From: an uncultured virus (IMG/VR IMGVR_UViG_3300037067_011375)
Lineage: Duplodnaviria > Heunggongvirae > Uroviricota > Caudoviricetes
IMG/VR virus record: IMGVR_UViG_3300037067_011375
Coordinates: 1-64,000 of that record
Direction: 5' to 3' (one strand)
DNA: 64,000 nt
Shown here piece by piece: positions 2,216-4,034 of the stretch. The translations under genes and the position numbers were made by a program. The first letter of the stretch is position 1, and each line of letters begins with the position of its first letter. Below the pieces are notes generated by a model. The model was not told where the DNA came from, did not search any database, and saw only the letters and a program-made list of their open reading frames with translations.

Positions 2216-2244
2216 TTGACGACAGCGTGGTGGGCGAGTAAGAT
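2216..2244 (+). promoter_or_regulatory. sigma70-type promoter for cas3, probably leaderless
   Basis: TTGACG-N17-TAAGAT, with ATG 2251 six nt after the -10 box. Confidence 0.55.
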
Positions 2245-2250
2245 ACCTGC

Positions 2251-3882
2251 ATGTCACGAGGTCTACCCTGCACCGACCTGGAGTTTGCCCAGGCGCTGGA
2301 ACATTGGTTCCAGGAAGTAGAAAAATTACCAGATGCGTCCGCATGGCTTCTATGCGGCAAAACGTCCACGGAAAAACCTACCGATGGCGGTGTTTTTCTC
2401 CCGGTGCACCCGACCCTGGCACACCTGCTGGAAGTTGCGGCCGTGGCGGAACGTCTACTGGCTAGACTTCCTCGCCATCTTTACCGTCGCCTTTTCCATG
2501 TGTTTGGCGGTGGTTCTCGAGGCAAGAGATTTTTGCTTTTTTGCTGCGCGATGCATGATTTTGGCAAGTTGACCCCAGCGTTCATCGGCAATAGATTAGC
2601 CAAAAATCATCCGGAGATTCGACAGCAGTACGAGGCCCGCGGTTTTGACTTTCCTGCTACCGAGGAGTTTGACCATGGCAAGTTCACGGTTGAACTGGTC
2701 ACGTTGCTGTTGGAACAACTTGGTTGGCCGGGTGCGCGGCGAGTAGCCAGGGCCATCGGGGCTCACCACGGTACCTACCACACTGACGCTCGTTTGGTGG
2801 GGCTTGGTCGGCGTGTACTGGGCAAAAGTGCCTCGTGGCAGAAATGCCGCGACGCGGTCGTCCAGGCGCTCAGGACGGTATTCCACGTCCACATGGCGGT
2901 TCCGAAGGTTCGCCCCCATGACCATGGCGGGCTGGTTCTGCTGGCTGGTTTGACCGCGATTGCCGATTGGATCGCGTCCAACACTGCGTTCTTCCCGTAC
3001 CGTTTGCCCATGGGGTCACCGGCGGACTACTATCAGGAGTGCTTAACTCGGGCCGACGTGGCCCTCGACACCATCAAGTATGCGCCGGCGCCAACTCATG
3101 AAGCCAAGTCGTTTGCTGATTGCTTCTCTTATTTGGGCATTTCTCCTTGGCCGTTGCACAATGCCCTGGCTGACATGCTGCCCAAACTTCATGACCCTTG
3201 CCTCGTGATTGTGGAGGCCCCGATGGGCGAGGGGAAGACTGAGGGTGCTCTATTCGTAGGCCAGGCGCTGGCTGCTCAGTATGGCTACGCCGGTTTATAT
3301 TTGGGCTTGCCGACGCAAGCGACTGCCAACGCACTGCATGGTCGCGTTCACGATTTTTTGCACCATGGTGGCTACCACGAGGCCAACAACCTCCAGCTGG
3401 TCCATGCCGATGCCAAAGTGCAGTTGGCCAATCCTGAGTACTGTGCGGCGGATGCCCCGTGGTTCTCATCTAACAAAAGGGCCATCTTGGCTCCGTGGGG
3501 CGTCGGGACGCTTGACCAAGGGTTACTGGGTTGCCTGCGGTCTCGCCATTCTTTCGTTCGACTGTTTGGTTTGGCCAGCAAGGTGATCGTGATGGACGAG
3601 GTTCATGCCTACGATACCTACACGAGCACGCTGCTGATCCGGTTGGTCGAGATCCTTAAAACTTTGCGGGTTTCCGTAGTCATGTTGTCGGCTACGCTGC
3701 CCCGCGGCACCCGTGAAAAGATGTGCGCGGCGTTTGGCGGGCCGGCGGGGTTGACCGAGAGATCAACATCTACACCGACGGTTACTGCCGTGACGACCTC
3801 AGGTTGCCCAATGACCATGCCATGGCCTTGCTGTATCGTAAATCTGGTGTGCACTACTGGCCGGTTGTTGACCAGTTGGTGA
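2251..3882 (+). CDS. cas3: Cas3 (HD nuclease plus N-terminal SF2 helicase lobe), C-terminally truncated
   Basis: HD-domain motifs HLLEV, HDFGK, HG, AHHG, ADWIAS; helicase motifs [33 protein letters not shown]; motifs IV-VI not found in the translated frames downstream. Confidence 0.88.
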
Positions 3883-4034
3883 ACGTCCAGGCCGACGGCA
3901 ACGACATCGTGGCAGAGATCCGGGCGGCTTTTGCGGTCGAAACATTGGCGGTGCATCGCTGGGAGCCCACCGGTTAGTTTTCTCTTTTTCGGGTCAAAAC
4001 TCATCGGTAAAGTCTTGCTACCAAGAGGTGCTGG

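Follow-up and report, generated by a model that had tools for sequence, protein, structure and literature searches.

The stretch of DNA analysed here (64,000 nucleotides (nt), called the window below) is the first 64 kb of the 132,407-bp IMG/VR virus record IMGVR_UViG_3300037067_011375, which has a CheckV completeness of 49%. It belongs to a large tailed phage, for which a terminase large subunit with an intein, a portal protein and a major head protein were matched. A second IMG/VR record of the same phage is 177,603 bp long (CheckV completeness 70%) and showed 0 mismatches to the window across the 9,879 bases compared. Because CheckV rates this longer record 70% complete, the whole genome can be put at roughly 250 kb. 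The gene studied here lies at 2251..3882 of the window and is derived from cas3. Its only close relative among 5.8 billion clusters is P0002, a 323-residue protein encoded on a 105-kb contig. The features of the locus, all on the + strand, are listed below.

2216..2244, + strand: predicted sigma-70-like promoter (TTGACG, 17-nt spacer, TAAGAT; consensus scan)
2251..3882, + strand: cas3-derived open reading frame (ORF), 543 codons; exact product found on three contigs, start also conserved in P0002
2356..2994, + strand: Cas3 HD nuclease domain, residues 36-248 (PF18019, E 1.1e-33), with all metal-ligand motifs
3187..3717, + strand: RecA lobe 1 (RecA1) of a superfamily 2 (SF2) helicase, residues ~313-489 (Walker A, motif Ia, DEVH, SAT; PF00270)
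3736..3755, + strand: linker where the frame offset probably arises, 20 nt versus 48 nt in P0002, with a G4 run at 3747-3750
3757..3882, + strand: frame-1 continuation, 41 codons and a stop; G+C content by codon position.34/.68/.54
3717..3977, + strand: frame-3 open stretch; sole start candidate GTG 3723, without a Shine-Dalgarno (SD) sequence; stop TAG 3975-3977
3756-3974, + strand: conserved tail within frame 3, homologous to P0002 residues 251-322
3958..3990, + strand: hairpin resembling a weak terminator, followed by a T-rich run; placed where the tail ORF ends, not behind the frame-1 stop

Domain content of the cas3-derived gene

A Pfam search of the 543-codon ORF returned Cas3_HD (E 1.1e-33, residues 36-248) and DEAD (E 2.9e-06, residues 313-486). 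The NCBIfam HD model cas3_HD (TIGR01596) scored 61.3 bits, over its cut-off of 43.45. The type I-E model PRK09694 was matched only at positions 24-510 of 878 (190 bits versus a 569-bit cut-off), and cas3_core (TIGR01587) only at positions 1-167 of 358 (95.8 bits, under the 102.45-bit cut-off). Alignment with 115 full-length homologues showed that the ORF keeps H53, H58, H102, D103, H142, H172, H173 and D239, together with the Walker A (GEGKT), DEVH and SAT columns. Among the columns conserved at 90% or more in the family, 32 of 40 are kept in the HD domain and 75 of 84 in the linker and RecA1.

The closest solved structures were the type I-E Cas3 of Thermobaculum terrenum (4Q2C, E 7e-67) and that of Thermobifida fusca. 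Homology ends at residue 502 (nt 3756) when the ORF is compared with 4Q2C by phmmer, and at residue 499 when it is compared with T. fusca Cas3. An extension of the frame-1 similarity to 3795-3828 proposed by BLAST was rejected, since 84 of 300 shuffles scored equally. RecA lobe 2 (RecA2; PF22590 and PF00271), which is present in the full-length homologues, was not found in the ORF by Pfam, and neither was the Cas3 C-terminal domain PF18395. Moreover, a profile of the C-terminal half and five full-length Cas3 queries detected nothing further in the six frames of the 177.6 kb. Past the end of homology, the frame-1 stretch 3757..3882 looks like a non-coding, out-of-frame reading of the tail described below. 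The bacterial Cas3 proteins closest by identity (41-44%) came from metagenome-assembled genomes labelled Vicinamibacterales, Myxococcales, Polyangiales and Sorangium.

In SF2 helicases, motifs IV to VI, including the arginine finger, sit in RecA2 and are needed for productive ATP hydrolysis and translocation. Since RecA2 is absent, the protein should be unable to hydrolyse ATP productively or to translocate, and it would therefore act only as a static HD-domain protein.

The frame-3 tail and the relative P0002

Downstream of the Cas3 homology, the G+C content by codon position in frame 3 is.63/.37/.74, compared with.61/.46/.69 in the long ORFs of the genome. Judged by this composition and by its homology, the stretch 3756..3974 is real coding sequence. 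In P0002, an HD domain 81% identical to that of the window is joined in frame, by a short linker that begins after residue 231, to a C-terminal tail, without RecA1. This C-terminus matches the frame-3 translation of the window at 41 of 74 residues (55%, E 4e-20). The two tails share a block of 15 residues out of 15 identical, differ by in-frame indels and stop at the same position. On this homology, the frame-3 stretch is the conserved C-terminal tail of the cas3-derived gene itself (about 75 residues, lineage-specific), now out of frame.

From the conserved AF residues to the first conserved tail codon, the linker measures 16 codons (48 nt) in P0002 and 20 nt in the window. Because the window linker is 28 nt (3n+1) shorter, its tail falls in the -1 frame; we infer this origin of the offset from linker lengths counted in the alignments. 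The tail may conceivably also carry a compensated double frameshift (frame 3-1-3 relative to P0002), the path picked by a frameshift-aware aligner.

The ten residues that follow the HD domain of P0002 match the Cas3 profile just past SATLP, with 10 of 500 shuffles scoring as well. P0002 thus looks like an in-frame internal deletion, of roughly residues 232-488, in an HD-RecA1-tail gene like that of the window. If so, RecA2 and the C-terminal domain were lost and the tail was acquired only once, in a common ancestor of the two lineages. Both genes would then descend from a single HD-RecA1-tail gene, from which P0002 later lost RecA1 in frame; in P0002, RecA1 is, by its absence, apparently dispensable.

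An exhaustive HMMER search with the tail among 1.84 billion representative proteins recovered P0002 and a 32-residue fragment identical to the window's own tail. Two other matches were discarded as spurious repeat proteins (VWD; RHS/TIG). No paralogue of the tail was found in the phage genome. A search among shorter proteins gave 56 matches, none of them close, the best aligning at 66% identity across 16% of the query. Contig searches of metagenome and viral contigs, including P0002 and two neighbour proteins as queries, matched only the phage's own 177.6-kb record. To the eye, the tail looked colinear with the start of RecA2 or with the Cas3 C-terminal domain, but as a diverged form of either it failed every test: the best hidden Markov model (HMM) E-value was 0.38 among 115 sequences, hhalign gave E 0.54, and position-specific scoring matrix scores equalled those of shuffles. 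For the fold or family of the tail, Pfam and PHROGs returned nothing and the protein atlas at best 0.75. An AlphaFold2 model of P0002 built from a 3-row alignment had a predicted local distance difference test score (pLDDT) of 36 and was unusable.

These results can be set against a preliminary description of the locus, made from the letters of the window. Its account of a Cas3 with intact HD motifs and helicase motifs I-III was borne out by Pfam, NCBIfam and the 115-homologue alignment. The absence of the second helicase lobe and C-terminal domain, which it also reported, agrees with the missing Pfam matches, the partial TIGR01587 and PRK09694 matches and the empty C-terminal-half search, and the end of similarity shortly after SATLP agrees with the phmmer limit at residue 502 (nt 3756), the frame-1 extension being no better than shuffles. 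It had further described a different coding-like frame taking over at this point. The frame is indeed coding-like by its codon-position composition, but P0002 homology makes it the gene's own tail rather than a separate unit. The truncation itself recurs in a second lineage: the RecA2-less form with the same tail is found in P0002, which lacks RecA1 as well.

Integrity of the junction between the two frames

A break in frame next to homopolymer runs might result from an assembly or sequencing artefact. The junction (3700-3900) was spanned by contigs of three runs from three studies, a landfill metagenome (2019) and two groundwater metagenomes (2018 and 2022), with 0 differences and 0 gaps. Contigs of a fourth run cover pieces of the stretch only, and none spans the junction. 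The three spanning runs are perhaps not independent, each being a possible source of this DNA, which leaves the artefact some ground. Their base-for-base agreement, the identical second IMG/VR record and the long core genes (terminase, portal, capsid, PolA, gyrase), which are free of frame errors, all argue against it. A private assembly slip is very unlikely, and an artefact of any kind at this junction extremely improbable. Thus the misassembly of which the preliminary description had warned is not supported.

A true offset could also be read through. At the G run (GCG GGG TTG, 3745-3753), a -1 slip by part of the ribosomes would yield an HD-RecA1-tail protein, the remainder producing the 543-residue form. 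The P-site tRNA-Gly could re-pair perfectly one base back on GGGG, and the slip point is where frame-1 Cas3 homology gives way to frame-3 tail homology. The tail ORF has stayed open and conserved, and a second frame break nearby also falls in a G run. However, the frame switch offers no canonical slippery heptamer (X XXY YYZ), no stabilising downstream RNA structure (z=+1.0; 172 of 200 shuffles fold as well) and no Rfam match. G4 runs are common (464 in 132 kb), and an ordinary 3n+1 indel explains the 20-nt and 48-nt linkers. An intact gene expressed by such recoding is therefore decidedly improbable.

Search for partner cas genes and expression signals

Families of cas genes other than Cas3 were absent from 132 of the 145 ORFs of the 132-kb record (the 13 left out of the scan being 9 under 70 residues and 4 crossing locus borders) and from the 68 ORFs of the additional 45 kb of the 177.6-kb record. 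A search for the Cse1 family gave no match, and repeat scans found no CRISPR-like array. These negative results cover 177.6 kb, that is, 70% of the genome by CheckV, the rest being unseen. The preliminary description had reported no Cascade genes or array in the window. This holds and extends to the 177.6 kb, in which no other cas gene, array or missing half of the gene was found.

The ORF starts at ATG 2251, 7 nt past the -10 element, and no SD-like sequence precedes this ATG; the predicted promoter would thus give a leaderless mRNA. The combination TTGACG-N17-TAAGAT alone is not above chance, with 2 such sites versus 1.2 expected. The extended motif TANNNTACCNNNATG has 4 copies in the window versus 0.13 expected, and 0 of 100 shuffles reach 4. 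All three copies on the + strand have TTGAC 17 nt upstream and an ORF beginning at the ATG (543, 147 and 113 residues), the shared design being TTGAC, N17, TANNNT, ACCNNN, ATG. The two copies other than that of the cas3-derived gene are as follows.

10674-10711, + strand: second promoter and leaderless start, before a 147-residue ORF without known family (10709..11152)
16859-16896, + strand: third promoter and leaderless start, before a DUF4160 gene (16894..17235); next comes a DUF2442 gene (17207..17452)

Given this excess over expectation, the cas3 promoter belongs to a class that recurs in the phage, and the cas3 unit and the two other promoter-bearing units look like independently transcribed accessory genes. 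The dedicated leaderless promoter of the preliminary description thus stands as a TTGACG-17 nt-TAAGAT site within a recurrent extended motif, although its core elements alone would not distinguish it from chance. Terminator-like sites were not significant on their own (2 found versus 3.4 expected).

Constraint and possible decay

Of the 231 positions compared between the HD domains of the window and P0002, 44 differ. These include just 1 of the 49 columns conserved at 80% or more in the Cas3 family, versus 43 of the 182 others (Fisher p=1.3e-4, a test of past constraint and not of present function), and the differences also follow column entropy (Mann-Whitney p=0.0011). As read from these two sequences, this shows that the HD domain has been under purifying selection from the divergence of the two phage lineages onwards. 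Identity to the family is.38 for HD and.51 for RecA1 in the window, and.46 and.61 within the family. The ratio is equal, and there is therefore no extra decay in RecA1. In a tree, the window gene has the longest terminal branch (1.39 versus a median of 0.24) and an unremarkable root-to-tip distance (1.42 versus a median of 1.11). The G+C content by codon position of the cas3 part (.63/.46/.64) is the phage's own, that is, ameliorated.

Neutral evolution was simulated with substitutions only (indels ignored), equal branch lengths and a truncation taken to predate the split. At the rate that corresponds to 81% HD identity (0.05 substitutions per site), a 502-codon ORF remained open in 9.7% of runs. 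At the rate implied by the tail (0.13 substitutions per site per lineage, ~58% tail identity), this fell to 78 of 20,000 runs; 15 consecutive identical tail residues appeared in 0.4% of the runs simulated at that rate. From the column test and the simulations together, we therefore argue that selection maintained the truncated gene, and at least the tail core, once the motor had been lost.

Our preferred interpretation is a co-opted, helicase-dead orphan viral cas3 derivative that is still in use, to which we give a probability of about 0.5. A type I-E-like cas3 would have been captured, its HD domain and RecA1 kept, and its RecA2 and C-terminal domain replaced by the lineage-specific tail. 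The result would be an orphan gene with its own predicted promoter, separately transcribed in a large phage, whose product acts as a static HD-domain protein without a motor. The tail offset in the window would be either a recent lesion that leaves HD-RecA1 in use or a point of low-frequency bypass.

A number of observations weigh against this interpretation. In this phage the tail is out of frame, and neither a slippery heptamer nor a stabilising RNA structure accompanies the frame switch; the only internal start, GTG 3723, has no SD sequence before it. P0002 lacks RecA1, its deletion beginning within the HD motif V region, so that parts of the gene are dispensable. The column test speaks of the past, and the simulations carry the simplifications given above. 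The gene occurs in only two lineages among billions of proteins searched, and the best bacterial Cas3 is only 41-44% identical, which points to no donor or host. No anti-CRISPR or anti-defence family was found in 20 proteins (the neighbours and P0002) with PHROGs or in the Pfam scan, PADLOC and dedicated anti-CRISPR libraries not having been searched. Finally, a second accessory gene in the vicinity is broken. Tandem paralogues without recognised function occupy 4370-6696; the first (4370..5518, 382 residues) is intact, and the second is split, its N-terminal part lying in frame 3 (5439..5996), up to ~5968, and its C-terminal part in frame 1 (5800..6696), from ~5974. A G6 run (5969-5974) marks the exact break, 2 kb downstream of the cas3-derived ORF; the record has only nine G runs of this length or longer. 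This frameshifted paralogue fits a local decay of accessory genes.

Several of these points would be expected of a decaying remnant, a captured cas3 that lost its 3' half and is now eroding without present function, looking intact since its lesions are recent. The tail is frameshifted in the window, the only relative has lost RecA1, a G6 run breaks the reading frame of the neighbouring paralogue while the core genes are intact long ORFs, no partner cas genes were found, and the family is tiny. Because broken accessory genes stand beside intact core genes, the lesions must be taken as real and confined to accessory genes. Moreover, the mildest neutral model, at 0.05 substitutions per site, still leaves the ORF open in 9.7% of runs. 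Set against this reading are HD differences that avoid conserved columns (p=1.3e-4), a tail whose 15/15 block and stop are common to both lineages and whose indels are in frame, an ORF that stays open in only 0.4% of runs at the divergence implied by the tail, the retention of a recurrent promoter, and a codon usage fully ameliorated to that of the phage. We consider decay, the main rival, possible rather than probable. The preliminary description had offered decay and repurposing side by side; both still stand, and the P0002 tail, the HD columns, the open ORF and the promoter have shifted the balance to repurposing.

Possible modes of action

If the gene is in use, its product would most plausibly serve counter-defence. 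As a Cas3 look-alike, it would dock on the R-loop of a host type I Cascade, would be unable to shred, and would block or blunt the action of host Cas3. We put this forward tentatively.

Less probably, the product may be an autonomous, metal-dependent single-stranded DNA (ssDNA) nuclease, whose tail would bind a partner or guide the enzyme to its target. Stated as a rival, the same idea makes it an HD nuclease unrelated to CRISPR, for example one that nicks or degrades host or competitor DNA and uses the tail for specificity or partner binding; the rival overlaps this second branch of the interpretation given above. Both lineages retain every catalytic HD residue, something of no use to a pure decoy, and what the lineages have in common is an HD domain with the tail rather than with the helicase. 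Cascade-independent, metal-dependent ssDNase activity is described for Cas3 proteins in 10.1101/2021.07.18.452824. However, the tail is out of frame in the window and has no recognisable fold or family, and the metal ligands may be retained for fold stability alone. Thus, retention of the catalytic residues somewhat favours a nuclease over a decoy, but the autonomous nuclease is doubtful in either form.

A broader possibility is that HD plus tail (about 50-75 residues) represents a new family of Cas3-derived phage counter-defence proteins, in which -1 slippage tunes the ratio of tailed to tail-less product. The tail would then replace the helicase in bringing the nuclease or decoy to its target, and the G6 break of the neighbouring paralogue would be a second case of the same recoding. 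This is a speculative reading, which we think unlikely.

Other genes and elements of the phage

The only recognised neighbours of the cas3-derived gene are an RNA ligase and a P-loop ATPase, both upstream (PHROGs and Pfam); its other neighbours have no family. The phage also encodes a family-A DNA polymerase (PolA), gyrase A and B, ThyX, RtcB and RNA ligase, and it bears several TnpB/IS200-IS605 elements and homing endonucleases. The terminase large subunit gene (19115-22849, 1244 residues) contains an intein with a LAGLIDADG endonuclease domain (Pfam Intein_splicing, LAGLIDADG_3).

Elements of the IS200/IS605 type lie at 35220-36563 and 12226-13698 in the window, and at L007:11259-12808 and L013:14462-15598 elsewhere in the genome. 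They comprise three clear TnpB copies and a fourth ORF with a match in the same PHROG transposase family; one TnpB copy is adjoined by a Y1 TnpA. The bacterial relatives of TnpB show at most 43% identity over full-length matches and are spread across many phyla, so that no host can be named from them.

Genes of the RNA-repair type comprise the RNA ligase (window 1-483), an RtcB ligase and a protein with a cREC_REC domain (cyclic-phosphate-processing receiver), the coordinates outside the window being L013:12720-13913 and L007:17204-17884. These three may form a tRNA-repair counter-defence set. Two radical-SAM proteins are encoded, one in the window (9157-10218), with a lysine-2,3-aminomutase-like C-terminal domain, and one at L011:8210-9184. 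A tRNA-Met gene lies at 11543-11614. Degenerate repeats of 9-15 nt, rich in GAC, GAG and AAG, were found at 37337-37515, where they encode an acidic, lysine-rich stretch of low complexity within the ORF 37019..38536.

Comparison with known systems

Compared with type I-E Cas3 (4Q2C; T. fusca 4QQW and 6C66), the phage gene is colinear over the HD domain, the linker and RecA1 (motifs I, Ia, DEVH and SAT). It differs in lacking RecA2 and the C-terminal domain, hence a motor, in having no Cascade, Cas1/Cas2 or array nearby, and in carrying an unrelated conserved tail. The separate nuclease Cas3'' is a second term of comparison, as the HD domain scores over the cut-off of the Cas3'' model (TIGR01596) and P0002 is HD-only as far as its Cas3 parts are concerned. 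Cas3'' works with a separate Cas3' helicase and with Cascade encoded alongside. Here, by contrast, the DNA available yielded neither Cas3' nor Cascade, the window copy retains half a helicase, and both copies are tailed. By its predicted content, the gene therefore does not group with functional Cas3, for want of RecA2, the C-terminal domain and a cas context, and it does not group with Cas3'' either.

Among GenBank phages, only three weak Cas3-like matches were found, and our literature search turned up no phage Cas3 derivative described as keeping the HD domain, having a dead helicase and bearing a foreign tail. Other viral contigs carry Cas3 genes unrelated to this one: two are full-length (893 and 977 residues), and a 669-residue ORF is cut by the locus end. 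The 977-residue protein (28% identical) is encoded in IMGVR_UViG_3300034069_002177 (202,737 bp), where it is followed by four large co-directional ORFs (5911-13394). This region may represent a phage-borne type I system.

The closest parallel is with orphan viral cas genes, of which 358 are reported in IMG/VR by Katz et al. (bioRxiv 10.1101/2023.06.24.545427), where homologues of Cas3, Cas5 and Cas8b are shown to be anti-CRISPR. Like them, the phage gene is a cas homologue in a viral genome without an array or cas operon. It fits this class by its sequence context, any anti-CRISPR action being putative. Two differences emerge. AcrVIA2 keeps a DEAD-box helicase and lacks the HD domain, and the phage gene does the reverse; and the orphan genes described there sit in anti-defence loci, whereas no such neighbour is recognised here.

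If the protein is inert, the locus documents well how a cas gene captured by a large phage erodes step by step. If it is active, P0002 (323 residues) provides a small natural HD-tail protein for direct testing of nuclease activity, Cascade binding and inhibition of interference. Altogether, the tested Cas3-derived orphan anti-CRISPRs, as described by Katz et al., keep the helicase without the HD domain, and the phage gene is their mirror image in two lineages; an active product would mean that the nuclease end of Cas3 is also open to co-option.

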